Virus record (IMG/VR): IMGVR_UViG_3300044517_000015
Location: 1-36,829 of that record
Length of the DNA: 36,829 nt
DNA from: a virus
Taxonomy: Duplodnaviria; Caudoviricetes
Strand: one strand, 5' to 3'
The notes under the pieces are model-generated. The model was not told where the DNA came from. It did no database searches and saw only the letters and a program-made list of their open reading frames with translations. Both the position numbers and the translations under genes were made by a program. This document shows, piece after piece, positions 3,782-31,956 of this stretch. The first letter of the stretch is position 1. Each line of letters starts with the position of its first letter.

Positions 3782-3952
3782 GTTGATTTCCGGTGATTTC
3801 TGGAAATCAAAACTCGCGAAACTTCTGACTACTTGTGACCACTTATGAACAAGTTAGGCCAACTGTGCTCATGGTTATGGTTTAATGTTTCGTAATACCA
3901 AGACCCCTTGTTTTCAAAAACTTAGTTGGTCTTGAAATCACCGGAAATCAAC
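3782..3952. other. putative intact attP site
   Basis: Perfect 19-bp inverted repeat (3782-3800 / 3934-3952) built from TGATTTC units, three 10-bp-phased ACTTNTGA repeats (3821-3850) and an IHF-like site (3912-3924), all at the 3' end of the integrase. Confidence 0.7.
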
Positions 3953-5088
3953 TGCCGCTCGCGCCCCTCAAAGGCCAGCTCGGTCATCTCGAGCTGCAAC
4001 TTCTGCGCCGCTGGCGACAATTGCTTCCGCTTTCGCCCACGCCCGTAACGCTCGGTGGTCGCCCGCAGCTTGTGCCGCATGGACTGCCGTTGCGCCTCGG
4101 GATGCGCCCCCAGGTACTCTTCCGCCCAGTGGCAATGGGTATGCCTCATGATGTGCGTGTTCCACCGCTTGAGGCCAATCGCTTTCGCCGCCCGCTCGTA
4201 AGCTTGCGTGATCGCCGTCTGCGAGTATGGAGTCGCGCCGTCCCGGTAGGGCGAGGCGAAAATCCAATCGCTCGGCTCGGCGTAAGGCGTCTCGCGCTTC
4301 CAGCTCTCGAGCTCGCCGATCATCTTCGGCCCCAGCTTGAGCACCTTCTGCGACTCTGGCGTCTTGCACTCATGCACCCTGCCCCGCACGATGTCGCGCT
4401 CGACCGTGAGCGTGGCTTCGAGCGGACGGTAGTCGAACCACTTGAAAGCCCGGGCCTCGCCTATGCGCAAGCCGTGGGCTTCCGACACCAGCGCAATGAT
4501 CGAGTAGGGCCGCTCGAGCCATGACTCGAAGGCCCAGAATTCCTCCTTCGACATGGGCACGGTTTCATTCACCACGATCGATGACTCATCGATGGTGACG
4601 TACTGCATGGGGTTTGCGAGAATCTGCGAAACCATGCCGCGCTTGGCCGCATACTGCCACAAGCGGCCAAGCGCATTGGCGATCTGCTTTTTGGTGTTCT
4701 GCGCGAGGTCGAGCGGCACCAGCCACTCCTCGACCACGCCCGCAAGCAGCGAGGTCAACGGCAAATGACCGAACTGCTGGCGAATGTGACGATGGAAGTT
4801 GCGATAGGTGACGATCGAAACCTCGCGCATACTCTGGTTGCGGCCAAAGCGATGGGGCGAAAAAGCGAAATGTTCGTAGCGTTCGATCACCCGATTGACC
4901 GTCCATTGCTCCGATTCGTGCTCATCGGCGAGCCGATCGGCTTTCTTCTGGGCCTCGACTTCATTGAGTTCATCGAGCCTGCCCAGAGTTCTGGTTGTGC
5001 GTTGTTTCGAATTGGCCTGCAGGCAGTTGGCGATCCAAGTGCCCTTCGACCGGCTGGGTACGGCTTTCCATTTCTTTTGGCTCTCCAT
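3922..5088 (-). CDS. int: tyrosine recombinase / phage integrase
   Basis: Catalytic residues in order: GLRIGE (R), KTPES (K), HIMRHT (HxxR), MRH (H), TTERYG (Y). Confidence 0.95.
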   Translation of the reverse strand: MESQKKWKAVPSRSKGTWIANCLQANSKQRTTRTLGRLDELNEVEAQKKADRLADEHESEQWTVNRVIERYEHFAFSPHRFGRNQSMREVSIVTYRNFHRHIRQQFGHLPLTSLLAGVVEEWLVPLDLAQNTKKQIANALGRLWQYAAKRGMVSQILANPMQYVTIDESSIVVNETVPMSKEEFWAFESWLERPYSIIALVSEAHGLRIGEARAFKWFDYRPLEATLTVERDIVRGRVHECKTPESQKVLKLGPKMIGELESWKRETPYAEPSDWIFASPYRDGATPYSQTAITQAYERAAKAIGLKRWNTHIMRHTHCHWAEEYLGAHPEAQRQSMRHKLRATTERYGRGRKRKQLSPAAQKLQLEMTELAFEGRERQLISGDFKTN

Positions 5089-5308
5089 TTTTTGACCCCT
5101 GAAGTAGAGAGCACAGTTGGCATGGCTCTAAGGTAGCACAGTGATGGTTGAGTATCCGCTCGATATCGGCATCGGTGAAACGAACGATGCGTCGCCCGCG
5201 AGTACCTGGCAGCCAGTGATAGGTAATCGAGTTAGCGCGCACCCAGCGCCTGAGAGTGGAAGCGGATACCTGCAGTTTTTTGGCGGCAACGGAGAGAGAA
5301 AAACACAC
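4970..5308 (-). CDS. excisionase-like HTH protein (start uncertain)
   Basis: SLSVAAKKLQVSASTLRRWVRANSI...RIVRFTDADIERIL, a Xis/MerR-like HTH directly upstream of int. Confidence 0.65.
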   Translation of the reverse strand: MCFSLSVAAKKLQVSASTLRRWVRANSITYHWLPGTRGRRIVRFTDADIERILNHHCATLEPCQLCSLLQGSKNGEPKEMESRTQPVEGHLDRQLPAGQFETTHNQNSGQAR

Positions 5309-5541
5309 AATCCTGTGGGGAAGTGACGATGACAACAGCAAAGCTCGCCTCGATTTTCTGGGCGTAAACGCTCGGAGACTGCACATCCTACAGCAGCTTC
5401 GGGGATTGCGTCCTGCTAAGGTTTTGGTTACCCCGGGGGAATTGAAAGGTTTTACGCCCAGAATCCGCACAAAACAAGGGGCTGAAGGTTCGTGATGCCC
5501 GGGTCAACTTTTGAGGGGGGTATTGATTTACTAACCTGCCT

Positions 5542-15933: not shown

Positions 15934-17043
15934 CTATGCCAGAGTTGCGAGTAACGTAATGCCCACGCTATGCGCCGTGGGATCTGCGCCCGAAGTAACA
16001 AACATGTCGATTGCGTCACCTGGAGCCAGAGTAAAAGGACTAGCCGTCCCAAAGGTCGCCGTCTGATTGACGTTCAAGGTTATGGTTCCGATCGTGGTTG
16101 CCGCACCTACCAGCGGAATCAAATCAACCTGCACCACTACGGGAGCAGTGGGCGCACCAAAGATGCGCGCGAAGCTCCCCACGAAGTTGCCGGGAAATGC
16201 CAGAGCCTGCGCCGCCACATACAAGTCCGAGCTATCAGCCGCATTGCCAGGAGGTGTCAGCAGCTTGAATGGAGCAGCGACTTGAGTGGTTACTCCTGGG
16301 GTTGAAGTACCCAGGAAATTGACCGCCGCAGAGTGAGCCGTAGCATCAGCCGCAGAGGTAATGAAGAGATCGAGCGCATCGCCGGGATTCATGGTGAAAC
16401 CCGGGCTTGCGCCGATCGTGACCGTCTGATTAGTATTGAAGGTAATGGTGGTCAAGGTCGATGCTGCCCCGGTAAGCGGCACGAGATCGAGCTGGGCGGT
16501 AATCGGGTTGGTCGGGGCCCCGAAGATGCGCCCGAAGCTCCCCAGGAAATTTGCCGGGAAGCTGAGCGACTGGACGGCGACAAACAAATCCGAGCTGTCG
16601 CCGGATGCGTTCGGAGGAGTGAGCAGTTTCAACTGCGCAGTCGCCGCCACCAGTGGCCCGGGAGGGCCAGGAGGGCCTTGCGGGCCAACCGGCCCCTGCG
16701 GCCCGGGAGGGCCTTGCGGCCCAGGCGGCCCGGGGACGCCCTGCACCTGAATCGCGCCCGGTATATTGACCGGCGAGTCACCGCAGATCGAAGAGAGGCG
16801 GGGCCCGAACACCAGGGTATTGAACTGATCGGTGACGATGATCTGATACTGCGAGCCCTGGAACATCAACTCATCGTTGCCCCATATGCGCGTGTCGTCG
16901 GGAATAATGCCGCTTGAATCGAGCGGTATCACATACAATCGGGGCGCATTGCGGGTCGAGCCGCCTATCAGCGACTGCTTGTCGAGCATAAGCGTCAGCT
17001 CGCCGTTAGCTGCGTTTGGGAACTGTCCCGTTATTACTTTCAT
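15934..17043 (-). CDS. collagen-like fibre protein with duplicated C-terminal domain
   Basis: 10 Gly-X-Y triplets (16651-16740) followed by two ~110-aa repeats, each starting KLLTPP. Confidence 0.75.
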
Positions 17044-17575
17044 CGCGTTTCACCAAATTGACCTGCAGGTCACTTACCGCATTGACGTAGTGCCGGATAT
17101 AGAACTGCTGAGTTTCCTGACTCTTCTGGGCGGTTTCCATGTCGAGTATGTAGCCGTAGTTGAAATCGAAATCGCATTTGCCCAGGTAATGCGTGAGCTT
17201 GTTCTGCACCCGCCAGTCCTTGTTGAAGTAGAGAAACGAATTCTCAACCAGCGGCGGCCACTGATGCGTGGGATCTTGGATCGCGCGAGGACTCGACCAA
17301 TAGGGGGTGACGATGGTCGCCTTGCCGCCAGGAATCAGGATGCGATAGAGTTCATCCATCCACTTGATGCGCAGGGGGCCGGGAACATGCTCCAGGAAAT
17401 GGGAACAGAACACTTCTTCAGTGCTAGCGTCTTTGAAGGGCCAGGGAAATTTCATAAGATCGACCTGGTAATCAGCAGCAGCGAAAAGATCGACCCCAAG
17501 AAAGCCTTCTCTTTTATTCTCTCCACAGCCAAGATCGAGCTTGAGAGGCGGGGCTTTACCGTTAAGTTTTTTCAT
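17006..17575 (-). CDS. class I SAM-dependent methyltransferase
   Basis: LDLGCG motif [18 protein letters not shown] and DPTH motifs. Confidence 0.9.
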
Positions 17576-17581
17576 GACAGT

Positions 17582-18280
17582 TCACCACATCATTCCAGTG
17601 GCTACGTCGAGATGCCCGACTTTGATCCTCGTATCGCAGGCAAAGCGATATCCTTCTCGGCCAGCATTCTCGAAAAACCATAAGTCCTGGGTATATTGCT
17701 TGCCGGTTTCCTGCACCGTGCGGAACCAGGGGCCGGGGAGCTTCCTGAACATACTCAGCCGGAAAAGATTGAAACCCATACCCAGGCCATTGCACTCCTG
17801 CAGGCATTCCGGTTTTGGCACCTGTGGTATAAAGTTCTTCGGCATCGTATGCGGATCACCATAAATCATGGGTTGACCACCCTCACCCTTAGTCCAGTAG
17901 AGTCCCCCGACGCAATCGAATTTTTCGATACTCTCGTAAAGTTTCAGGAGTCCATCGGTAGGTGGGGCGTTGTCTTCCTCTGTGGTGAGCAGGTATTTCC
18001 AACCGCGCAGCTCGGGGTGGTCGAGGATCATCTGCACTGCCGCCTGGTAGCCAGCGCCCACTTCTTTGCCCTCAATGAAAAGCGGGCCGACCATCTTTTG
18101 ATTCATCGGTCGCATGAGCCCCATCCATGAGCTGAATATGCGCGTCGGAAGCATTCCCCGGGTAACCGAGATCCATACCGTAGAAAGATCCTGATAACTC
18201 TTCGCCTGGTGCAAGCGATCGCGCGCCAAGCTCAGGTTGGCGTTGTGGAAGCCGATCTGGTCTTCGAGCTTAGGAACCAA
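17582..18280 (-). CDS. GT-A fold (GT2-like) glycosyltransferase
   Basis: YLLTTEEDN (DxD-equivalent), VGGLY, GLGMGFNLF, QDLWFF and D.RIKVGH motifs. Confidence 0.75.
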   Translation of the reverse strand: MVPKLEDQIGFHNANLSLARDRLHQAKSYQDLSTVWISVTRGMLPTRIFSSWMGLMRPMNQKMVGPLFIEGKEVGAGYQAAVQMILDHPELRGWKYLLTTEEDNAPPTDGLLKLYESIEKFDCVGGLYWTKGEGGQPMIYGDPHTMPKNFIPQVPKPECLQECNGLGMGFNLFRLSMFRKLPGPWFRTVQETGKQYTQDLWFFENAGREGYRFACDTRIKVGHLDVATGMMW

Positions 18281-20075
18281 GGCGCCTCCTCAGATCGACC
18301 AGTGATCCCGAAAGCGATACGCACAGATCGCTCAATGAGCGGATGCTCTCCATGGCGGCGGCGACCCCGGCAACATTGATGGTGAGGTTCCCGAAACCCG
18401 CTACTGGCTGGTCAGCAGAAAGAGTCACGCCAGACCCCGCCCATAGTCCCAAAAAGGGTTGGATACCTAAAATAGATGTGCCCAACGTAGCGCCCCCGCT
18501 TAGATGATCCAAAGTAAGAACCCAACCCTGCTGTATGGCATCGATGGTGACGGTAGTGCCAAAGGGGCTGACGGAACTTGCAGTCGTCATGGTTATATTG
18601 CTTCCGGCAGTAACTTCCAGCCTGGGTACATTGATAGTGAGATTGGCGGAACTACTGACGGTAACATTTCCGCTGAACGATACATTCTGCCCCGCTCGAA
18701 GCTGTAAAGCCCCAATGGGCTGGGGCGAGTTAGGCCCAGCCGCGCTTCCGCCCACAGTTGAAGCTGCCAAATAGTTGAACTGGGGATTGGGCAGGCTCAC
18801 CGTCATTCCTGCACTGTCCGTAGCCGTAGTAAAAGTTGAGCCCATCCCTCCCATAGCGAGCTGCAAACGATTTGAAACCGTTGCTGCACCTGCGCCAGCG
18901 ATAAATCCCGCAGCGTTCGCGCTGATCGTAGCCGTAGTTCCAACTGAGTTGGTAGCCTGAGTGATTCCGATATTGTCACTGGCAACGAATGAAACATGAC
19001 CCATGGGGGAGCCGGTGATCGTGGCGGTGGTTCCAGAAATATTGGTAGTTTGCGTGATGCCGATATTTGCTCCCGGAATCAATGACATTTGCGCTCGGAG
19101 GCTGGTCTGATCCCTGGCCCCAATCCATACCTGGGCGACACCGGGGCCATTGTCAAAGAGACTTAAAGCAATATTGCTAGCCGCAAAAAACCCTAGGGTA
19201 GAGATATCGGCAAGGCTCTGTTGCCCAGCCGTTGACCCTCCCGGGCCAAATCCCACCATGGTTACAAGGGGTATTCCGGCGCTTCCGCCGCCGCCGCCTC
19301 CACCGCCCGCGCTGATGGTTGCCGTCGTACCCAGAGAATTGAAATTCTGGATGATGCTGACATTCGCGCCGGGAACGAGGGAAACTGATCTCAACCTTTC
19401 GCCGATGATCGAACAAGTCATCGATCCGGCAGTGGTGCTGTAGGAGAGCGTGATGTTCGAGCCAGCGGCGAGAATAAGCTGATTGCTTACCGTCACCGTG
19501 TCCGTACCCGCAGCACCATTGATGGCGCCAGCGCTCAGCCCGGGAATCCCATTGATCGAGAGGGTCAGGCTATTCTGGCTTAAAGATCCCGAGAGCGATA
19601 TATTCGAGCCACCTGCGAGAATGAGCTGATCGGATACCGTCACTAGATCCGTTGATACTCCGTTTGGCCCGGTGATCGTCGCCCCCAGCGCGCCCCCTAC
19701 CAAGGTAGGCGAGGTCACTATCGAGATCGAAGCAGCCTGGTCGGTAGGTGGAATGGTCAGGATCGGAAGCAGGGCGTTGATGTTTACCGGATCTGGCCCG
19801 CTGATGATGATCCATTGCGGCCCCCATATTAAGCCACCCCCAAAGGCAGTAACCGTAGCGGTGTAGTAAGTCCCGTCAGGACTCAGTTCATCGTTGGCCC
19901 AGACCCTGGCATCCGACTTAAGCGCGCCCTGCTGAGTAAGCGCGAACGACACCTCGCGCGGGGCCACCTGGTTGGTGTTCTTGACCACCGCATCCTGATT
20001 GAGCTTCAGATGCAGTTTTCCCCATTGTGCGAGATTGCCGCGCGCGTCTTGCCAGATGCCGGTGATGAATTTCAC
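18270..20075 (-). CDS. Ser/Thr/Gly-rich tail fibre-like protein
   Basis: GTG 20075 overlaps the upstream TAG; repeated AGxNI(S/T)(L/I)-like motifs; N-terminus paralogous to the collagen fibre. Confidence 0.7.
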   Translation of the reverse strand: MKFITGIWQDARGNLAQWGKLHLKLNQDAVVKNTNQVAPREVSFALTQQGALKSDARVWANDELSPDGTYYTATVTAFGGGLIWGPQWIIISGPDPVNINALLPILTIPPTDQAASISIVTSPTLVGGALGATITGPNGVSTDLVTVSDQLILAGGSNISLSGSLSQNSLTLSINGIPGLSAGAINGAAGTDTVTVSNQLILAAGSNITLSYSTTAGSMTCSIIGERLRSVSLVPGANVSIIQNFNSLGTTATISAGGGGGGGGSAGIPLVTMVGFGPGGSTAGQQSLADISTLGFFAASNIALSLFDNGPGVAQVWIGARDQTSLRAQMSLIPGANIGITQTTNISGTTATITGSPMGHVSFVASDNIGITQATNSVGTTATISANAAGFIAGAGAATVSNRLQLAMGGMGSTFTTATDSAGMTVSLPNPQFNYLAASTVGGSAAGPNSPQPIGALQLRAGQNVSFSGNVTVSSSANLTINVPRLEVTAGSNITMTTASSVSPFGTTVTIDAIQQGWVLTLDHLSGGATLGTSILGIQPFLGLWAGSGVTLSADQPVAGFGNLTINVAGVAAAMESIRSLSDLCVSLSGSLVDLRRRLGS

Positions 20076-21115
20076 TAACCACCTCTGAGCATAGGTAAGT
20101 CTGGGAAGAAAGCTTCGTGCCGTTCCTGCTGCTGGCGTATGCCGAGCGCGCGCGCGATGTCCTGCTGCCACTTGGCATCAGCCCCGGGCGCGCGTGGGTC
20201 TTCGGCGTGATCGAGGGCCTTGGCATACACACCGCTGCGCAGCACATAGGCGAGCTCGTCGGGCCAGGGCGCCCAGTTGTCATCGAGATGAGTCTTGATC
20301 GGCGGACGCAATTGAAAAAAGATCAAGACCCGCCATATCTGCGAGCTCGGAACCGGCCACAGGCGAATCAGAACTTCGTGCATGGTGCTCGGGCCGCAAT
20401 TTTGTATATTTTCGAATTGGACGGTGACCTTGAAAGGCGGCTGTACGATCGACTCCTGCGAAAGCGAAGCCACCACCAGGATCTCACGCACCGGCTTCAC
20501 AAATGCCGTACTGAAAAAATCCTCGAGCGTGGATCGCTCGAGCCAACCAATGTTGTTGATGCCCTGGCCACCATCGTTACTCATGCCGGATGTGGCAAGC
20601 TCGAAGGTGAAACTATTGATCGATGGAACCGTATCGATCATGAATGTCCCGTTGTAGTTCGCCTGTCTGGCACCGGCAATGGTGACAAAATCGCCGGGAG
20701 AGAAGGGAAGCGGCATCTGCGATGTCCCCTTGCCGCGAATGCCAAAGGGGGCAAATCGCGAGTAAGTGGCGAGCACATGGGTGGCATCCAAAGGCATCAG
20801 TCCTGGCGGATCGGTGAATTCCGTATTGAGCTGAACCCATGCCTTGGTGATGCGAGTGCCCGAGATCGAGGTATCGACTATCGCGCTCGTTCCCGATAGC
20901 CAATAATCCTGCTGGTTGGGGATGGTGGTAAATGGCGGCACTTCCCCTTTGTTGAACGTCCAGTTATTCGGGGCGCTCAACAAGGTTTGCAGCGTGTCAT
21001 TGCAAATATCTAACGCAGGCTGATTGGGCACACCTCCAACGTTGACGAGCTGGATCATCCTCGTCCTCGTCCTATTGAAATCGACTACGCTGCGTAATGA
21101 AAGTGTCGAGCTCAC
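20075..21115 (-). CDS. putative head-tail adaptor protein
   Basis: N-terminal A...N...L...NW.FN...QQDY and C-terminal IRLWPVP / WPDELAYVL motifs; position after the head genes. Confidence 0.6.
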   Translation of the reverse strand: MSSTLSLRSVVDFNRTRTRMIQLVNVGGVPNQPALDICNDTLQTLLSAPNNWTFNKGEVPPFTTIPNQQDYWLSGTSAIVDTSISGTRITKAWVQLNTEFTDPPGLMPLDATHVLATYSRFAPFGIRGKGTSQMPLPFSPGDFVTIAGARQANYNGTFMIDTVPSINSFTFELATSGMSNDGGQGINNIGWLERSTLEDFFSTAFVKPVREILVVASLSQESIVQPPFKVTVQFENIQNCGPSTMHEVLIRLWPVPSSQIWRVLIFFQLRPPIKTHLDDNWAPWPDELAYVLRSGVYAKALDHAEDPRAPGADAKWQQDIARALGIRQQQERHEAFFPDLPMLRGG

Positions 21116-22735: not shown

Positions 22736-23215
22736 TCAGTTCTTGAATTTTCTGGTCTGCCGGTCGAAAGCCTCGGAGGCTGACGATTCGTAAATGGGGA
22801 AATGCTGCTGAACTTGCTTCCAGGTTATTAGCCGCAATTTCAGCAGGCGGCGCAGCACCTCGCGCCAGCCATAGTCAACGGGCGGCTTCGTGCCCACCCA
22901 GGCGATGCGATCCGATGCATCGGTAAATACCTGGCTGAACTCGCGCACCATGCCTTTCGCGAAATGGGCCCCGGTATAGCACTTGAGCTGCCCAAGCGAC
23001 GAGGGATAGTACAGGCTGATGCGCTCATGCTTGAATTTGATCGAATCCTCGGCCCAGATAAGCGGGTTCATCAACTTGATGCGGCTGATGAGCTCGTTCG
23101 AGTGGATGGAGATCGCCCGCCGGTCTTTCTTCCACTCGTCCTGGTCGGGAATGCGATCGCGCGCAAGCTGGCGATCGGTGTCCTCATAGAGTCGCGCGAG
23201 CTCCTCATCAGGCAT
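22736..23215 (-). CDS. hypothetical protein
   Basis: AGGAGG RBS before ATG 23215. Confidence 0.65.
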   Translation of the reverse strand: MPDEELARLYEDTDRQLARDRIPDQDEWKKDRRAISIHSNELISRIKLMNPLIWAEDSIKFKHERISLYYPSSLGQLKCYTGAHFAKGMVREFSQVFTDASDRIAWVGTKPPVDYGWREVLRRLLKLRLITWKQVQQHFPIYESSASEAFDRQTRKFKN

Positions 23216-23840
23216 GTACCGATTCCTCCTTGGGTTTTCGCAGAATGTCGCAGTAATAGCCCAGGCGGGTGGCATATACCGCAATCACTCCACTTGGCTC
23301 GATCGGAGTCGAGTCGTAATCAACGCCATTCCCCTCGCCGCACATATATCTCCACATCCATTGCAGCAAAGAGCCATGCAGCACTAACACGATCGGGAAA
23401 GGTTCCTCGAAAGCGATTCCCGTATACTTCAGTAAAGCTGTCATTCCCCGTTCGCCAGCGCTCCCCCAGCTCTCGCCACCGGGAGGAACAATATGTGGCT
23501 GAAGTTTGAGTTTTCGGATTTCCGCGTGATTGGCCGAGATAATTTTGCCTTCCAGATCACTGCCCACATCCCAGCTCCTGAGAAGGATGTCCTGGTGGAC
23601 TTCGAGATGGTGGGGTTCCGCGATAGAAATGGCCGTCTGGTAAGTGCGCTCGAGGTCGTCCGAATAGACGGCACTAAGCTTGATATCACGAAAGAAATCG
23701 GCGAGTTCGCCCGCTTCCTGTTCACCCTCCTGGTTGAGCGCGACATTCTGCGTTCCACGTATCCGTTCCTCGATGTCAAGATCGACCAGGGCATGGCGAA
23801 CTAGATACATGATGATTTCGCCGAATTTAGATTCATCCAT
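23208..23840 (-). CDS. histidine phosphatase (phosphoglycerate-mutase superfamily)
   Basis: YLVRHA, L...G..EA, YSDDLERTYQTA, PGGESW and VLVLHG motifs. Confidence 0.9.
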   Translation of the reverse strand: MDESKFGEIIMYLVRHALVDLDIEERIRGTQNVALNQEGEQEAGELADFFRDIKLSAVYSDDLERTYQTAISIAEPHHLEVHQDILLRSWDVGSDLEGKIISANHAEIRKLKLQPHIVPPGGESWGSAGERGMTALLKYTGIAFEEPFPIVLVLHGSLLQWMWRYMCGEGNGVDYDSTPIEPSGVIAVYATRLGYYCDILRKPKEESVHA

Positions 23841-24832
23841 CAACTGATTGAGCTTTCGGTTCTGATTTCAACAAATCGGGGATGGAGTCCTGCGGCTTGC
23901 GGGACTCGCATGGCGGCATATTTGAAGTTGTAGGCACAGCTTGCACCAATAACTCGCGCTGGGTCAGCCGCACTGGGTTCCCAGTTTCTAACGATAAGTT
24001 GGAAGTTTCGTTGCTCGGGGATTTCTGTAGCTCCGAGAGAAACACTGAATACAGCGTCTTGCCCGACGATGAGGGTTCCGAATGCGGTAAGTCCCGCTGC
24101 CGGGGTGTCCTGGTAGATGCTCGCGGTTGTCGTTTCAATGAACCTCACTCCAGCGATATCGATAACTCGATATCCCTGTACGCCTCTCATTAATTCTTCC
24201 GAACCTTCCTTGTGATACTTGAGTATGTCAATTATGCCCCCGGCCACATTGTCGTTCATTAAGTCAAAAGCAACGACCGGAGATATAATTCCCGCGAAAA
24301 GACCGTCTGCCTGCGGTCTTACATCCAAACCACGGAGATGAAATACAGCCTGTCTTACTAAGGCCGCACTTAGGAACTCATCTACCGCACCCAGTAACAC
24401 GGCTGCGGGATCGGAGGCCGCCTGCGATTCAAACTCCATGCGCGCGAGCGTGTTGGCAGTAAGTGCAGCCCGAAAACCCATTTCCGCTGCGGTATTTTCC
24501 ACGATCGGGTCGATGGCGGTTTCGACTAACAGGTCGGAGAACGACGCGAAATCGAAATACTGATTAACGGTAACGTTACGGATAGAAGTGGTCGGAGCAA
24601 TCCCCGTTCCCACAGTGCCCTCAACCCCTGGCGTGACATTGGCGGGCAGAAGATCGTAACCAAACAATTGCAGAGTCCTACCGTTACGATCCGGTAACTT
24701 CCGACGCGATGTAACCGCCACGAAGGGAAGATTAGGTTTGAGATTTTCAACGGCCACCCTGTCGTAATAGATTGAAGCTAAATGCGTAAGTCCTGATGTG
24801 CTAGTGAGCACACTTGCCGGTTGGTAAGCCAT
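23840..24832 (-). CDS. major capsid protein (N4-gp56-like)
   Basis: YYD...L......F.....LP...G.T, EG, QY.DF..FSD, IAGVRFIET and DP motifs; follows the scaffold gene. Confidence 0.85.
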   Translation of the reverse strand: MAYQPASVLTSTSGLTHLASIYYDRVAVENLKPNLPFVAVTSRRKLPDRNGRTLQLFGYDLLPANVTPGVEGTVGTGIAPTTSIRNVTVNQYFDFASFSDLLVETAIDPIVENTAAEMGFRAALTANTLARMEFESQAASDPAAVLLGAVDEFLSAALVRQAVFHLRGLDVRPQADGLFAGIISPVVAFDLMNDNVAGGIIDILKYHKEGSEELMRGVQGYRVIDIAGVRFIETTTASIYQDTPAAGLTAFGTLIVGQDAVFSVSLGATEIPEQRNFQLIVRNWEPSAADPARVIGASCAYNFKYAAMRVPQAAGLHPRFVEIRTESSIS

Positions 24833-25731: not shown

Positions 25732-26038
25732 CTTGTCTCTCGTAAAATTTCGCGATCATCTGCTGAATGGCCAAGCGATCGTTCATGTCCGAAGCCTGCC
25801 GTACCGAATCTTCCATGGTCGCCTGAAATTCCTTGATGGCTTTCAATCGCTCGCGCACCGTCCAGGCAGCATCCGGCGTTAAGTTTTCGCGCAGGTAATA
25901 CTCGTTCAGCCGGTCGATCCGCCGCCGCGCGAGCTGGCAATAGATCGGCCAAGCGGGCGACGCAAACAGATCCCTGAGCGCGATGGCCTCGTCAAAGTTG
26001 CGCAGAATGTCCTCGAGCTCCTGCTTTGAAAAACTCAT
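25715..26038 (-). CDS. small helical protein after portal
   Basis: ATGA overlap with the portal stop; L..L..SPAW motif. Confidence 0.65.
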   Translation of the reverse strand: MSFSKQELEDILRNFDEAIALRDLFASPAWPIYCQLARRRIDRLNEYYLRENLTPDAAWTVRERLKAIKEFQATMEDSVRQASDMNDRLAIQQMIAKFYERQDDIIQ

Positions 26039-28173
26039 GATGGCGCCTGTCCCATCGGGGGCGGAGTACCCGGCTGGCCGCCCCCGGGCTCGGTCTGCAT
26101 TCCCTGATCCTGCTCGGGGGGAGTAAATAAGTCCTTGAGCTGCGCGAGCACCTGCATACGGTTGGCCGGGTTCATCTGCTCGACCAGGCCCCGGATGATA
26201 TGTGTGCCCGACTGCGCCAGTCCCTTCTTTTCGATCTCCTGCATGGTGGCCTGGTGCTTGAGCGCGATCTGGTTGGTCTGCATGGCCTGCTCCGATTTCT
26301 GCTGTTGCCGCTTGCGGTCGTCGTCGGTCATCTTGACTATGAATTTCTGGGCCCCCGGCCAATCGGTTGAATCAAGCAAAGTCTGGATAAACTCCATCCA
26401 ATCCACCTTCATCTGCTGGGCATCGATCGCATCGAGCACCGGGGCTAGCTGCAAGAGCCCGACTATCTGCGGCGCGAGCTGCAACATGCCCATGCGCTGG
26501 CGCAGCTTCGAGCCCGCCAGCACCTCGAACTTGAGGCTCGCGTTCTTGAGCTGGAGGGGATCGAGATCGAGCTGGTCTTTCAGGTCCTCGCGCATATACG
26601 TCTCGATTTGATCAGCGGGCAGCCACTGCGCATTCATCTCATGCAACGCCTCGAGGAAGGGAACGAACATGAGCCCGGTGATTTGATCCATCCAATAGCC
26701 AATGCGGGCACCGAGCGCGCCGACTGCGGTACTAACGCCCGCACTGGTTCTTCCCAACTGACCACTCGAGGGTGCCGTTCCCTGAGTAACCAGTTGATTC
26801 GCGCCGGTTCTACGTTGCGCGCGCGAATCCGAAGCCTCGATCTCGGTAAAGGCATCGACAATAGCGGGAGGGTATTGAATCATCTGGATGCCCTTGGCAT
26901 CGTCCGTATCTACGATCCCGCCCGGTCTTAGTCGTAACTGCTGAGTCGGAGTATTAGAACCACGAGTGCGCAGAAAAGTACCAGACAAACGCAGAGCCAG
27001 ATCATCAAGCCTACTATTAATGACGCCCTGCTGGAGCCGCTGCTCGCCCGCTAATAACTGCGAGATGCCAAGACCGTACCAAGAATCAATAACATCAGCG
27101 AAGTTAATAGAAAGATAATTGATCTTGCCGAGAGGATTGGGCGCATTTTTGATTACCAGCTTCCGGTTAAGTACGGTTATGCACTTAGTATCAGTAACAT
27201 ACTCGACCATCTCGAGCGGTTGCTGATTGGGATCACGCGAGGGATCTTGCCAGCGAGGCTGGGCCTTGAACTCCATGTTAATATCGAGGCTTGAAATTCC
27301 TGTATTTAGTACGCTTGAAGTGGAGCGACCTTCTAACAAGGATCTTTCCGGCGACTCCCGTGGTGGCCGAAACAGCGACTCTAGAAAGTCTCTGGGTGGA
27401 ATTCGATAATCCGGTTGCTCCCGCAGATCTTCTAGATCTGTCAAATCCACATATCTGCGATCGCATACGTATCTTGCTTTCCTTATATCCGGCTGGCGAA
27501 GCTGGGGATCACACACCAGGAAGCGAATGTGGATGCGTTCAAACCAGGGTTCGTGATAGCTATATTCCTCGATCTTCTCTTGGATATCACGCGAGTGCCT
27601 GGTTGGAAGTAAGACGGTGGCATTGCCCACGGTGCGGGCTTCGGGCACATCAGCGTATGTGTATTTAATCCGCCGCTTGGTCTTCTGGCACCATCCGTAC
27701 TTCCATATGCCGGTGCCGTAGATCAAACTTTCCTTGATGCCCAGCCTCACCTGCTCCTCAAATCCGATCGCCTTCAACTGCGCGGCCATGAGGGCTCGCA
27801 CGGCGCGCGCAGTTTCGGGCGAGGTGTCGCCTTTGCCGATAACATCAAATGGCGGATTGTCGGCAAAGAGACTAGCCATGATCTGGGGCATGAGCGACTC
27901 GATATGCTCGAAGATCAGGGGAATTCCAAGCGACGCGCGGGGGACGCTCGAACCTTCCCAGAACGCCTGCGGCATTCTGAACAGGAATAAGCGGTCGCTG
28001 CGATCCCAGCTTACGGTCATGCCTTTCGCAAGCACATAGTACTCGGCCAGGTTCAGATCCTTGACCACCAGGCGCAGGGCGGCATCGTCGTCGGTTTCAG
28101 CCCCATAGTCTATGGGGATATCGAGAGGATCTAACTCCCTGCCCAGATCGTAAGGTTGGTATAAGACCGCCAT
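26035..28173 (-). CDS. portal protein
   Basis: 712 aa after TerL; LIYGTGIWKYGW, DP, WYGLGISQLL and L.PGG motifs, with a Q-rich C-terminus. Confidence 0.85.
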   Translation of the reverse strand: MAVLYQPYDLGRELDPLDIPIDYGAETDDDAALRLVVKDLNLAEYYVLAKGMTVSWDRSDRLFLFRMPQAFWEGSSVPRASLGIPLIFEHIESLMPQIMASLFADNPPFDVIGKGDTSPETARAVRALMAAQLKAIGFEEQVRLGIKESLIYGTGIWKYGWCQKTKRRIKYTYADVPEARTVGNATVLLPTRHSRDIQEKIEEYSYHEPWFERIHIRFLVCDPQLRQPDIRKARYVCDRRYVDLTDLEDLREQPDYRIPPRDFLESLFRPPRESPERSLLEGRSTSSVLNTGISSLDINMEFKAQPRWQDPSRDPNQQPLEMVEYVTDTKCITVLNRKLVIKNAPNPLGKINYLSINFADVIDSWYGLGISQLLAGEQRLQQGVINSRLDDLALRLSGTFLRTRGSNTPTQQLRLRPGGIVDTDDAKGIQMIQYPPAIVDAFTEIEASDSRAQRRTGANQLVTQGTAPSSGQLGRTSAGVSTAVGALGARIGYWMDQITGLMFVPFLEALHEMNAQWLPADQIETYMREDLKDQLDLDPLQLKNASLKFEVLAGSKLRQRMGMLQLAPQIVGLLQLAPVLDAIDAQQMKVDWMEFIQTLLDSTDWPGAQKFIVKMTDDDRKRQQQKSEQAMQTNQIALKHQATMQEIEKKGLAQSGTHIIRGLVEQMNPANRMQVLAQLKDLFTPPEQDQGMQTEPGGGQPGTPPPMGQAPS

Positions 28174-29975
28174 TATCCGACTATCCCAGCTCCTATTTCT
28201 CCGTCGCCATAGGTCTGTGCACCATGCACCAATACCGGCTCGGGGTCGGGCGCCAGTTCAGGGCGATACCCATGATTGCGGTAAAACGCCATAAGGGAGA
28301 CTGCACGGCAAATATCATCGTGGTGATACTTTGGAAATCGAGAGAACTCACGAAACAGCTCCTCTAAATCGGTGCAGCTCGCACAGAACCATAGCTTCGA
28401 CTGCTCGAGCAGCGGGCCCATGGCCATGATCTGCTGCATGGGCCGCATACCCCCATAGTGGACGGGTATCAAGTCAGTCGGGATATGCAGCCCAAACTCA
28501 CGCTGCTTCATCTCGAGTCCCGGCATCAACATGGTGGTCGCCTGGTCTTTCTCGATCCCCACCCGGCAGACCGGCCACTTGCGGTATGTCTCGATGATCT
28601 TGTTGATCACTTCATTAGGGCGGAAACGCCCGCGCACCAGGTCAACGATGAAGAGCGTCCCATTCGGCGAGTAACCGCCCAGAATGCCTGCCGAGAAATC
28701 GGAATGCTCGCGCGTCGAGTAGGCAAGATCCCACGCCATGAAGAGGTTCACGGTGGATGGGATATCCGAGCGCTCGATAATGTGGGTGCGCAACCTGGCC
28801 TGGGAGAATTGATCGGCAGCCATCGACTGCGGATCATTCATATATTGAGAGGCAAATAATTCGGGGTCGTCCCGCCAGATCTGCTCTAAGTTTTGCTTTT
28901 CCGCCGTGCGATCCTCATCAACGCAAAAGCGCTCAGGAAACAGGATCGCTTCAGCGCGAAACAGCGGCTTATCCGGCTCGCGCTCGATCGCGCCCTCGAC
29001 CATGACCTTCCAACCCTCGGGTTTTTCGATGATCCCGGCATAGAAACAATCGTAGGTATATAGCGTCCCGATCACATCCCGGTAGCCGCCGGGATTCAGC
29101 AGGGGCAGCGTTGTAGACCATTGCCGCTTGGTTTCAGCATTGAGGATCGCGGTCTTTGAGTTCTGTTCGGTGATCACGTCATCGAACTTCATCAGATCGT
29201 AGTGCGAACCGGCGCGAGTCTTTTTGAGTGTCGTGATGCTCAAGGTGGGCTCGCGCCGGATCTGGGCTCGGCAAGGGACGGTGAAATGTCCTTTCTCGCC
29301 AAAGCGCGCTATCTCTTTCATCGGGCACCACTGCGGATACATCTCGCGAAAATCCCCGTTCATCAGAAAATGCTGCTTCACCTCATCGACCATGCGCTCG
29401 GTGAGCTCCTCGGTTCCCGAGAAGAGAGCAATGGTGATATTCGGGATCGCGAGCATCCACTGAATGGTGTCGATCAAATTGATGGTGGTCTTGAAGTGGC
29501 CCCTCGGTAATAACAACAATCGGTTCTTGTCATAATCCTGGACAAGCCAGTCTTTGGTCGGATCTTTCTCGACAAAGAAATCGCACATCGGCTTATGCAG
29601 CCGCTCCACCAGGTCGGGATAGACGCGCGAAAAAACCGTCTGGGCCAGGAACCACAAATCCCGCTTCCCCCGTTCACCAGCCTCAGACGAAATAAGCGCC
29701 CGGGACTTAGTAGGCGCAAGCTCGCGGTTTTCGTACTTCTTGTGGCCAGGTTTCGGCACTCGCTGAAAGGCTTCGCCCCGCGCATTGACACCGAAGGCTT
29801 CCATGACCTCGGCCCTGGCTTTCTTAATCGCCTTGCGGGCGAGCTTGCGTTCCTCGGCGCGCACCTCGGCCTTGGCCGCCTTGATCTCGGGCGAGTCGGG
29901 CTTGCGGCCCGCTGGTAATCTTCCGTTAGCGATCGCTGACGCGATCGTGGCCTGCTTGGCTTCGTCCGAATCCAA
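28173..29975 (-). CDS. terL: terminase large subunit
   Basis: Walker A LLLLPRGHFKTT, Walker B GSHYDLMKFDD, VIGT coupling motif, QYMNDP, nuclease WDLA...DFSA and FPKYHHDD. Confidence 0.93.
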   Translation of the reverse strand: MDSDEAKQATIASAIANGRLPAGRKPDSPEIKAAKAEVRAEERKLARKAIKKARAEVMEAFGVNARGEAFQRVPKPGHKKYENRELAPTKSRALISSEAGERGKRDLWFLAQTVFSRVYPDLVERLHKPMCDFFVEKDPTKDWLVQDYDKNRLLLLPRGHFKTTINLIDTIQWMLAIPNITIALFSGTEELTERMVDEVKQHFLMNGDFREMYPQWCPMKEIARFGEKGHFTVPCRAQIRREPTLSITTLKKTRAGSHYDLMKFDDVITEQNSKTAILNAETKRQWSTTLPLLNPGGYRDVIGTLYTYDCFYAGIIEKPEGWKVMVEGAIEREPDKPLFRAEAILFPERFCVDEDRTAEKQNLEQIWRDDPELFASQYMNDPQSMAADQFSQARLRTHIIERSDIPSTVNLFMAWDLAYSTREHSDFSAGILGGYSPNGTLFIVDLVRGRFRPNEVINKIIETYRKWPVCRVGIEKDQATTMLMPGLEMKQREFGLHIPTDLIPVHYGGMRPMQQIMAMGPLLEQSKLWFCASCTDLEELFREFSRFPKYHHDDICRAVSLMAFYRNHGYRPELAPDPEPVLVHGAQTYGDGEIGAGIVG

Positions 29976-30593: not shown

Positions 30594-30778
30594 TTCAAAT
30601 CCTCGAGGTTTAACTTCGTGCCCGCAAACTCATCATCGAGAAAACCATAAACTTCTACCGGCTGCCCCGTCAATGGATCATCGGCCAGACCGATAAGCTT
30701 CGAATGTGAGCGGATGTTTCCCCGCTCCCACGCCTGGTACTCGGGATCACCATGATCTGATAAAGCCACCTGTCGCAC
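30590..30778 (-). CDS. hypothetical protein (start uncertain)
   Basis: Fills the operon gap; ATGA coupling to the next gene. Confidence 0.45.
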   Translation of the reverse strand: MRQVALSDHGDPEYQAWERGNIRSHSKLIGLADDPLTGQPVEVYGFLDDEFAGTKLNLEDLK

Positions 30779-31049
30779 CTCCCAGCCACATCTGCTGTCC
30801 CGGGCCGATATCTATACCCGGCGATCCGCCCTCAAATCCCCACTCGGGCTCGGGCCAGACATTCGCCGTCTCGCCGAGAGCCTGGGTATAAGCGTTGCCC
30901 TCGGCCAAGCTGATGCCGATTACCCAGGCGATCGGAATGGCGTTCGGGGTATCGACAATCCAGCCACCCTCGTTCTCGAGATACCAGGAGTAACTGCCGT
31001 CGAGGCCGATCTGCATCAAGTCTGCGGCTTGATTACCTGAAAAGCTCAA
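30747..31049 (-). CDS. hypothetical Trp/Gly-rich protein
   Basis: AAGGAG RBS before TTG. Confidence 0.55.
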   Translation of the reverse strand: MSFSGNQAADLMQIGLDGSYSWYLENEGGWIVDTPNAIPIAWVIGISLAEGNAYTQALGETANVWPEPEWGFEGGSPGIDIGPGQQMWLGGATGGFIRSW

Positions 31050-31356
31050 GTTTTACTCCTTTGCCAAATTCATTCAACCGCCTAGCTTCAGCGATAGCCT
31101 GGAAATACAGATTGGCCTTGAGGTTATCGACCGCTTCTTTGTTGTAGTAGATAACAGCCATATTCGCCAAGCCTCGCCCATAGAATGCATCCGGCTTCAT
31201 AACTCCCATTCGAATAGGCATCGCTTCCCAAAATGGTTTGTCTCGAATGACGATCTTCTTCGGGAAGCTCCATACCCGATTGAACGGGATGGCCTCTGCA
31301 AGCGCCACCCCTCCGACTGTAGCCGACAAGGCTTTTAAAAATCCCCTGCGATTCAT
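31033..31356 (-). CDS. Tat-signal-like small protein with a capsid N-terminus paralogous segment
   Basis: MNRRGFLK...ALA signal; C-terminal 41 aa align to major capsid residues 18-57. Confidence 0.75.
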   Translation of the reverse strand: MNRRGFLKALSATVGGVALAEAIPFNRVWSFPKKIVIRDKPFWEAMPIRMGVMKPDAFYGRGLANMAVIYYNKEAVDNLKANLYFQAIAEARRLNEFGKGVKLELFR

Positions 31357-31600: not shown

Positions 31601-31956
31601 CAGAAACCCGCCTGTCCGGTGCTTACAACTAAGGGCGAACCTTCAGACACAGGTTCGCGGGCGGGGCCAGCAGGCGGCACCGTGCGCGTGGCTCTAGGTG
31701 AGGTACTCCGTCCCGCTACTCGGGCGCGTGGAGGGCCACCCACAGACATAGGGCGGTGACCACCGCCGCCAGCACCAGGAGTACGATAAATAGAACCAGG
31801 TTGTGATTGCTGAAGCATCGAAGCCGTACTCGTTCCCATGTAGCCCGGATTCGAGTGATAGTTGTGCGGATCACCCAGCAGATCCTCCCCCGGGTCGTAT
31901 GATGACACACCGCAGGGAGCGCAGTCGGGCCAGGGGGCATTTACGTATCCAGGCAT
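31600..31956 (-). CDS. hypothetical protein
   Basis: GAGGAGG RBS; 118 aa. Confidence 0.5.
   Translation of the reverse strand: MPGYVNAPWPDCAPCGVSSYDPGEDLLGDPHNYHSNPGYMGTSTASMLQQSQPGSIYRTPGAGGGGHRPMSVGGPPRARVAGRSTSPRATRTVPPAGPAREPVSEGSPLVVSTGQAGF

Follow-up and report, generated by a model that had tools for sequence, protein, structure and literature searches.

Why should a phage encode a small protein that begins like a twin-arginine translocation (Tat) substrate and ends like its own capsid? We investigated this for P0001, encoded in a 36,829-nucleotide stretch of viral DNA (the window, record G000). The record represents a temperate, podovirus-like phage and is 44% complete; an integrase, together with an excisionase-like gene, indicates the temperate lifestyle (Table 1). 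An earlier note, made from the sequence of the window, had suggested that P0001 is a decoy that binds a host sensor, or the capsid or scaffold of a rival phage, and tethers or exports it, or alternatively that it regulates assembly. Our analysis favours a bait for a host sensor of virion proteins, tethered or exported via Tat, to which we assign a probability of roughly 45%.

Genomic setting of the gene

The P0001 gene, located four small genes upstream of the terminase, has a GC content of 0.48 compared with 0.52-0.61 in its neighbours. Its 3' end overlaps the start of the next gene, and it therefore heads the run leading to the terminase, portal and capsid. A terminator-like hairpin 280 nt upstream (31635-31658, minus strand), of a kind that stays within chance counts, suggests that a separate transcript running into the packaging genes may begin with this gene. 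Elsewhere, a histidine-phosphatase gene directly follows the capsid gene both in the window (23208-23843, minus strand) and in locus L058 (2069-2728), and one lies close to the terminase in L025 (14627-15331). Between tail genes of the window are a methyltransferase gene (phrog_6636; 17006-18280, minus strand) and a phrog_1574 gene that is glycosyltransferase-like by eye.

Table 1. Coordinates of P0001, its segments and related genes in the window
Feature	Position	Strand	Remark
Tat-leader mini-protein gene P0001	31033..31356	-	107-aa ORF, 31356->31033
P0001 residues 1-22, twin-arginine signal	31291..31356	-	R3, R4 and F6 invariant in the family
P0001 residues 23-37, conserved motif IPFNRVWSFPKKIVI	31246..31290	-	Family-specific
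P0001 residues 54-64, KPDAFYGRGLA, probable portal-derived scrap	31165..31197	-	GLA shared with the start of the capsid piece
P0001 residues 62-106, diverged copy of capsid residues 14-57	31039..31173	-	
Source segment, major capsid protein (MCP) residues 14-57	24662..24793	-	Within the MCP gene
DSWYGLGIS, probable source motif of the portal-like scrap	27061..27087	-	In the portal gene
MCP gene, phrog_1357	23840-24832	-	
Portal gene	26035-28173	-	
Terminase	28173-29975	-	
Downstream 100-aa gene	30747-31049	-	TTG start and Shine-Dalgarno AAGGAG overlapped by the 3' end of the P0001 gene
Integrase	3922-5088	-	
Excisionase-like gene	4970-5470		

The tail carries a diverged copy of the capsid N-terminus

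We compared the tail of P0001 with the window's MCP by BLASTP and found that residues 62-106 align with capsid residues 14-57 at 21/45 identities (E 3e-9, single comparison), with an ungapped core of 17/33 at residues 62-94. The identity counts given in the earlier note (15/29 ungapped, 19/41 with one gap) are correct when counted on this alignment. Residues 60-104 independently matched phrog_1357, the family of the window MCP (E 0.015), and against a profile built from 21 related MCPs the tail gave E 1.3e-9, so that the profile match to the capsid N-terminus exists and chance resemblance was rejected. Four identities past the gap fall where the last codons (KGVKLELFR) overlap the next gene and may be partly imposed by that gene's start; the xLF ending is also present in other members.

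The codons told the same story as the earlier note, which had ruled out a recent DNA duplication. The codon is identical at only 6 of the 21 shared residues, where 6.9 are expected from MCP codon usage; third-position identity is 0.30, and the longest DNA word common to the tail and the window MCP is 9 nt. Recent duplication within the window was accordingly rejected. Over residues 14-57, 19 related capsids are 66-95% identical to that of the window, compared with 47% for the tail, which makes a fresh capture from a sampled relative unlikely on the aligned sequences; an unsampled donor could still be the source. The tail holds capsid residues 14-57 of 330 alone and not a full-length HK97 fold with E-loop, P- and A-domains. 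For the window capsid itself, single-sequence fold prediction reached pLDDT 32 and a PDB sequence search gave no match.

The portal-like stretch just before the capsid piece is a weaker case, as the earlier note had also judged, and the motif DSWYGLGIS is present in the portal where it had been placed. BLAST found nothing between this stretch and the window portal. When residues 38-66, a segment chosen post hoc, were scored against a 20-portal profile, the score was equalled by 2/1000 shuffles at any portal window and by 6/2000 shuffles with HMMER; a scan of all 203 tails with the portal profile (E ≤ 1) did not list P0001. A portal origin of residues 54-64 is probable by these scores, not firm.

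A near-invariant Tat module precedes the tails

The leader MNRRGFLK scored 22 bits on TIGR01409, above the cut-off of 16.7, in agreement with the Tat consensus read at residues 1-22 in the earlier note; on Pfam PF10518 it scored 17.5, below the cut-off of 22.7. NRRGFLK corresponds to the Tat motif S/T-R-R-x-F-L-K, and residues 6-19 form a hydrophobic h-region (mean Kyte-Doolittle value 1.56 in the window and 2.0 in 200 members), which is short for a Tat signal. G16-x-A18 is a possible cleavage site, with small residues at positions 16 and 18 in 189/200 members and at positions 20 and 22 in only 12/200; the leader has no lipobox cysteine. The ESM Atlas yielded only leads to Tat signals that scored below 0.9.

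Homologues share residues 1-37 and are wholly different beyond, so the fixed module consists of the Tat signal and the near-invariant IPFNRVWSFP, always ahead of a short swappable tail. R3, R4 and F6 are present in 60/60 locus members with varied codons. Among the 200 top-scoring members, whose median length is 104 aa, R3, R4, F6, G16, A22 and P24 round to 100% and K8 reaches 24%; positions 27-32 served as the selection motif for these members, and their invariance is circular. A DNA or RNA element behind the leader conservation was rejected, as synonymous codons are free and both serine codon families occur at S30. In the available portion of a study of the TatBC-MdoD structure, the equivalents of R3, R4 and F6 contact TatC (PMC13323110), and from this we infer that the leader would engage TatC.

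We searched a 40-position module profile against 1.84 billion representatives and found 643 clusters (50% identity) at E ≤ 1e-3, 459 of them at E ≤ 1e-10. Among 50,697 cultured-phage records there was no match. In 401 genomes of the order around the Terriglobales genome G001, the whole module was matched only in G001, which encodes TatC, and in G395, of the same order; in the other 17 matching genomes the match was confined to residues 1-29 in long ORFs, probably ordinary Tat substrates. An Acidobacteriota host is likely for the family, an assignment that rests on binned contigs. The G395 member (L165:15138-15494, minus strand) is divergent and sits on a 119-kb contig (C29), in antisense orientation among phage head and tail genes; its tail showed no match to neighbouring ORFs (64/200 shuffles equal or better).

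Many tails contain pieces of virion proteins

Of 166 non-redundant tails, 65 matched profiles of locus genes at E ≤ 0.01, against a null of 0.0 from ten-fold shuffled or reversed tails, and at E ≤ 0.05 three MCP families received 71 of the 84 matches. In a wider set, 91/203 tails matched one of five capsid profiles (E ≤ 0.01; null 0.0 with shuffles) and 112/203 matched none; the tail of L001 is of the latter kind, with no match to its own capsid or to the remaining four profiles. In hundreds of homologues the RRxFL leader recurs together with fragments of virion proteins, an architecture for which the earlier note had proposed to look. PHROGs alone were insensitive: at E ≤ 0.1, 12/114 members matched anything and 3 a head protein, and at E ≤ 0.02 a head-protein match was seen in 1/87 members.

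The tails are often patchworks of 2-3 pieces of 20-60 residues in altered order (P0109, P0106, P0142, P0065). When 60 locus members were compared with the ORFs of their own locus, the best match exceeded all 40 shuffles in 20, and the targets were the own MCP in 16, a head-closure protein in 3 and another protein in 1. A terminase Walker A-like motif occurs in 2/243 tails (null 0), and the tail of L059 mirrors the terminase motif of its own phage; some tails are thus catalytic motifs and not assembly interfaces. Recurrent tail ends such as TAAFPPDSSHTPS, with pS 0 and pN 0.26 in one overlap with a convergent neighbour, look like an antisense reading of that neighbour's end; they were stripped for the counts of tail turnover and capsid regions and kept in the profile scans of 166 and 203 tails.

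Two further tail types recur without a firmly traced source. An IGD-containing, beta-rich type is found in 31/243 tails (null 0; for example P0017, P0090, P0092, P0151 and P0167) and weakly matches the window gene at 20075-21115, and a Y-A-x-I-R-x-x-G-W type is found in 10/243.

Tails follow the carrier's own capsid family

We then asked whose capsid is copied. Among 65 distinct tails with DNA context, the capsid family of the tail was that of its carrier in all 23 testable cases; 22 of the remaining tails had a known capsid family and no match, and 20 had no known family. The 23 comprise 17 P22-type, 4 phrog_1357, 1 phrog_371 and 1 phrog_9953 tails, the last two being partly circular because their one-sequence profiles derive from the MCP of the carrier itself, and the leaders in two rows (L016, L125) are of other kinds. 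A decoy should resemble the carrier's sensed protein, and at the level of the capsid family every testable tail did so.

A reciprocal test agreed with this, the window tail scoring 91 on its own MCP and 45 on that of G004, and the G004 tail 133 on its own and 97 on the window's. Within a family the correspondence is looser. The own MCP was best for only 1/13 P22-type tails (mean rank 0.32 among 33), and the tail of L058 scored 87 on its own MCP and up to 97 on others. Judged by these alignment scores, the tails track self at the family level only and are not tuned to self within the family.

These data bear on the main competitor of the sensor bait, in which the gene serves prophage defence by poisoning the assembly of related superinfecting phages. 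The lysogen would express it from a promoter read by the host, the scrap would bind the capsid, scaffold or portal of the invader, Tat would tether or export the complex, and late antisense transcription would silence the gene in the carrier's own lytic cycle. We regard this scheme as unlikely overall, though worth weighing. A decoy must resemble the own capsid whereas a poison must not hit it, and the agreement in 23/23 cases, with no sign that self is spared, speaks for the former; Walker A-like tails are not assembly interfaces either.

The regions copied are more favourable to poisoning. The MCP of one P22-type carrier gave a good fold prediction (pLDDT 79) and matches the Sf6 and P22 coats (E 1e-20). 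Tail matches peak at the N-terminal helix and the following strand, with lesser peaks at the start of the spine helix, one insertion-domain strand and the last hairpin; these element names are presumptive, being assigned from general knowledge of HK97 folds. In HK97-type capsids the N-terminal helix and strand, the start of the spine helix and the last hairpin are subunit and scaffold contacts, as interference with assembly would call for. Well-conserved P22-type profile positions 281-320 are almost unused. N-terminal pieces dominate in three families (58/81 in the P22-type, 10/12 and 4/4), and in the phrog_371 family they number 0/7. The tails of P0030 and L125 sit behind different leaders and both combine one and the same pair of capsid strands, a further point for poisoning.

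In five close relatives (L115, L122, L123, L126 and L127) the capsid gene is split into two ORFs by inserts, located at residue 191/192 in L115 and near residues 276-282 in L123, L126 and L127. They are probably introns.

Tails change quickly and are kept at the protein level

Over 16 pairs of a tail and its own MCP, the same codon was used at 89/219 shared residues against 83.8 expected. Distant tail pairs had pS 0.58-0.86 and pN 0.13-0.49, and the tails of L045 and L067 had pS 0.79 and pN 0.13 over 28 codons; these ratios are indicative, as local alignment itself selects for protein similarity. The earlier note had raised neutral evolution of the segment as a test of its idea, and what we found is tail similarity kept at the protein level only, with codons at chance. 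The closest pairs do not fit a simple purifying picture, their tails having 4 non-synonymous and 0 synonymous changes. Unrelated tails were found in 641/824 pairs whose leaders are at least 34/37 identical, which shows that tails turn over faster than leaders. Each of five contigs carries two copies of the gene, and together with the unrelated-tail pairs this looks like the pattern of an arms race.

The contrast between leader and tail raises the alternative that the leader alone is the effector, jamming or occupying TatBC and, for instance, altering envelope proteins or receptors, with the tail as captured filler. Conservation of the leader greatly exceeds that of any tail, at residues 23-37 it goes further than a signal requires, and more than half of the tails lack a traced source. 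Filler, however, would not be expected to keep a protein-level likeness while synonymous sites are at chance, to sit at 47% where capsids are 66-95% identical, or to retain a tail-specific motif found in 7/243 tails and absent from long locus ORFs; nor does it explain why three unrelated leaders carry the same segment. We consider a leader-only effector quite improbable.

The gene is optional and often has its own promoter signal

A -10 box (TANNNT) whose end lies 6-7 nt ahead of the start codon was found in 33/63 members compared with 2/297 structural genes. This layout is that of leaderless mRNAs transcribed from housekeeping-sigma promoters. No such box precedes the window copy. Among the 63 members, 48 are antisense to the virion genes, 12 could not be oriented, and three (window, L003 and L014) are co-oriented and adjoin the gene run leading to the terminase. 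A PF00589 recombinase is present in 18/30 carrier records, many of them just 180-210 aa long, and two records are classed as provirus.

Several of these features suit assembly poisoning, namely the antisense position of 48/51 orientable members within the virion operon, the leaderless -10 boxes, and the recombinases, provirus records and window integrase. The three co-oriented copies speak against it, as they would be made together with the own capsid. By position and by the -10 boxes, the gene is placed for production with or before the capsid, and the protein is presumably made during infection.

We found the module in 0/29 loci with a window-type MCP, many of which end before the site would be reached; L101, L111 and L125 do span the syntenic position and have no copy there. 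In G030, a close relative with a 75% identical portal, the gene is missing from the syntenic position, and the phage instead encodes at L125:769-1230 (plus strand) a protein with a different Tat leader and capsid pieces 86-104 and 2-44, with TATACT 7 nt before its ATG. In the 96.6-kb phage G004 (L016), a third leader is joined to the N-terminus of the own capsid, 50 kb from the MCP gene. The leaders of L016 and L125 are unrelated to the module and carry the same capsid segment. Other small RRxF-leader ORFs unrelated to the module occur at L003:9763-10014 (plus strand), between scaffold-region genes just ahead of the capsid, and at L008:17529-17804 (minus strand).

The gene is therefore optional, and close relatives do without it, so the assembly-regulator alternative of the earlier note is unlikely as an essential role. 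A milder form would have a capsid or portal scrap, anchored in the membrane, nucleate procapsid assembly at the inner membrane or set its timing. It accords with the own-family matches and with the window copy heading the packaging genes, but sits badly with the empty sites and 0/29 loci, and with the rapid turnover of the tails and the many regions and proteins from which they derive. We hold such a helper to be very improbable; like the leader-only effector, it fits worse than the bait or the poison.

A proposed bait for a virion-protein sensor

The recurrent fusion of leader and fragment, the profile match to the capsid, the conservation at the protein level and the promoter boxes together make a decoy or bait the best reading. 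Also in its favour are the constant likeness of matched tails to the carrier's capsid family, the copies positioned for production along with that capsid, the catalytic-motif tails and the arms-race-like turnover. In this scheme a host sensor of virion proteins would be bound by the capsid scrap yet not triggered, and the leader would hold the sensor-bait pair at TatBC or carry it out of the cytoplasm. For the latter step, the Tat system can co-export partners that lack a signal of their own, as described in the accessible part of PMC4273604. Of the original decoy proposal, the recurring architecture and the capsid match are borne out, while the choice of partner and the movement through Tat stay predicted; that the partner is a host sensor we infer.

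Short scraps could in principle be bound. As far as the available text of PMC13601566 goes, Avs3 reads active-site residues of the terminase and Upx was modelled to bind unfolded strands, so linear pieces are conceivable ligands. Other observations weigh against a decoy. The consulted portion of a preprint (bioRxiv 10.64898/2026.01.04.697583) describes Avs7, Avs8 and Avs10 as binding the folded HK97 shape, mainly its A-domain, whereas the tails favour the capsid N-terminus (58/81 in the P22-type), and in one screen covered by the available part of a review, capsid triggers required oligomerisation (PMC13728456). Short scraps may not fold into the sensed surfaces. In addition, more than half of the tails have no capsid-profile match, self-tracking is at the family level only, the window copy lacks the box, the antisense placement of 48/51 members also fits silencing in the carrier's lytic cycle, and the changes between the closest tails are all non-synonymous.

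Comparison with known systems

Like known Tat signals and hitchhiker systems (TIGR01409, PF10518; HybO, PaoA), the module has RRxFL, invariant TatC-contact residues and a moderately hydrophobic h-region, and in the Tat system the signal of one chain can carry partners out. Unlike Tat substrates, it is phage-encoded, its short leader is followed by a unique conserved motif, and its passenger is about 65 residues of virion scraps and not a folded enzyme; export is a prediction. Sensors of virion proteins (Avs2/3/7/8/10, Upx, Thoeris, CapRel) detect the classes copied in the tails, namely capsid, portal, head closure and terminase, but the known capsid sensors read folded surfaces and the tails are short scraps. 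The tail is homologous to the N-terminal segment of HK97-fold MCPs (phrog_1357 in the window, P22 coat PF11651 in most relatives), yet it comprises only about 45/330 residues, has diverged further than genuine capsids have among themselves, and is unable to adopt the fold.

Assembly blockers (Tab; CpmB, Rcm, Ccm, Sid, TcaP) are likewise small accessory genes of temperate elements. In the portions of the sources at hand, CpmB mimics a scaffold motif of the helper phage (PMC12409344), and Tab is made constitutively from a prophage and is a precedent for prophage-borne blocking of assembly (PMC10884400), which lends poisoning some support. None of the blockers described in those portions has an export signal or is pieced together from virion motifs of the carrier itself, and Tab has a dedicated antidote, whereas no antidote gene was seen for the module.

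The full texts searched gave no description of Tat-leader proteins with virion fragments; a capsid-fragment decoy or Tat-routed inhibitor is absent from the available parts of reviews of phage anti-defence, and the whole word 'Tat' is absent from the main text of a November 2026 review of phage countermeasures. We found no anti-defence or anti-phage strategy in this literature that uses Tat or shuffled fragments of the own virion. The size of the family, at least three unrelated leaders and four unrelated capsid families imply that the design has been selected repeatedly.

If the tails poison rivals, they would represent a modular, programmable block of phage assembly. If they are baits, they would show where on capsids, portals and terminases immune epitopes lie, and would offer affinity probes for unknown sensors. 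A bolder form of the bait reading, which we put forward as a tentative and rather doubtful possibility, is a Tat-tagged, rapidly refreshed library of the phage's own virion epitopes, by which the host's own exporter deports its immune sensors. Were this true, the list of tails would be a readout of the capsid, portal and terminase epitopes watched by the immunity of uncultured soil bacteria.
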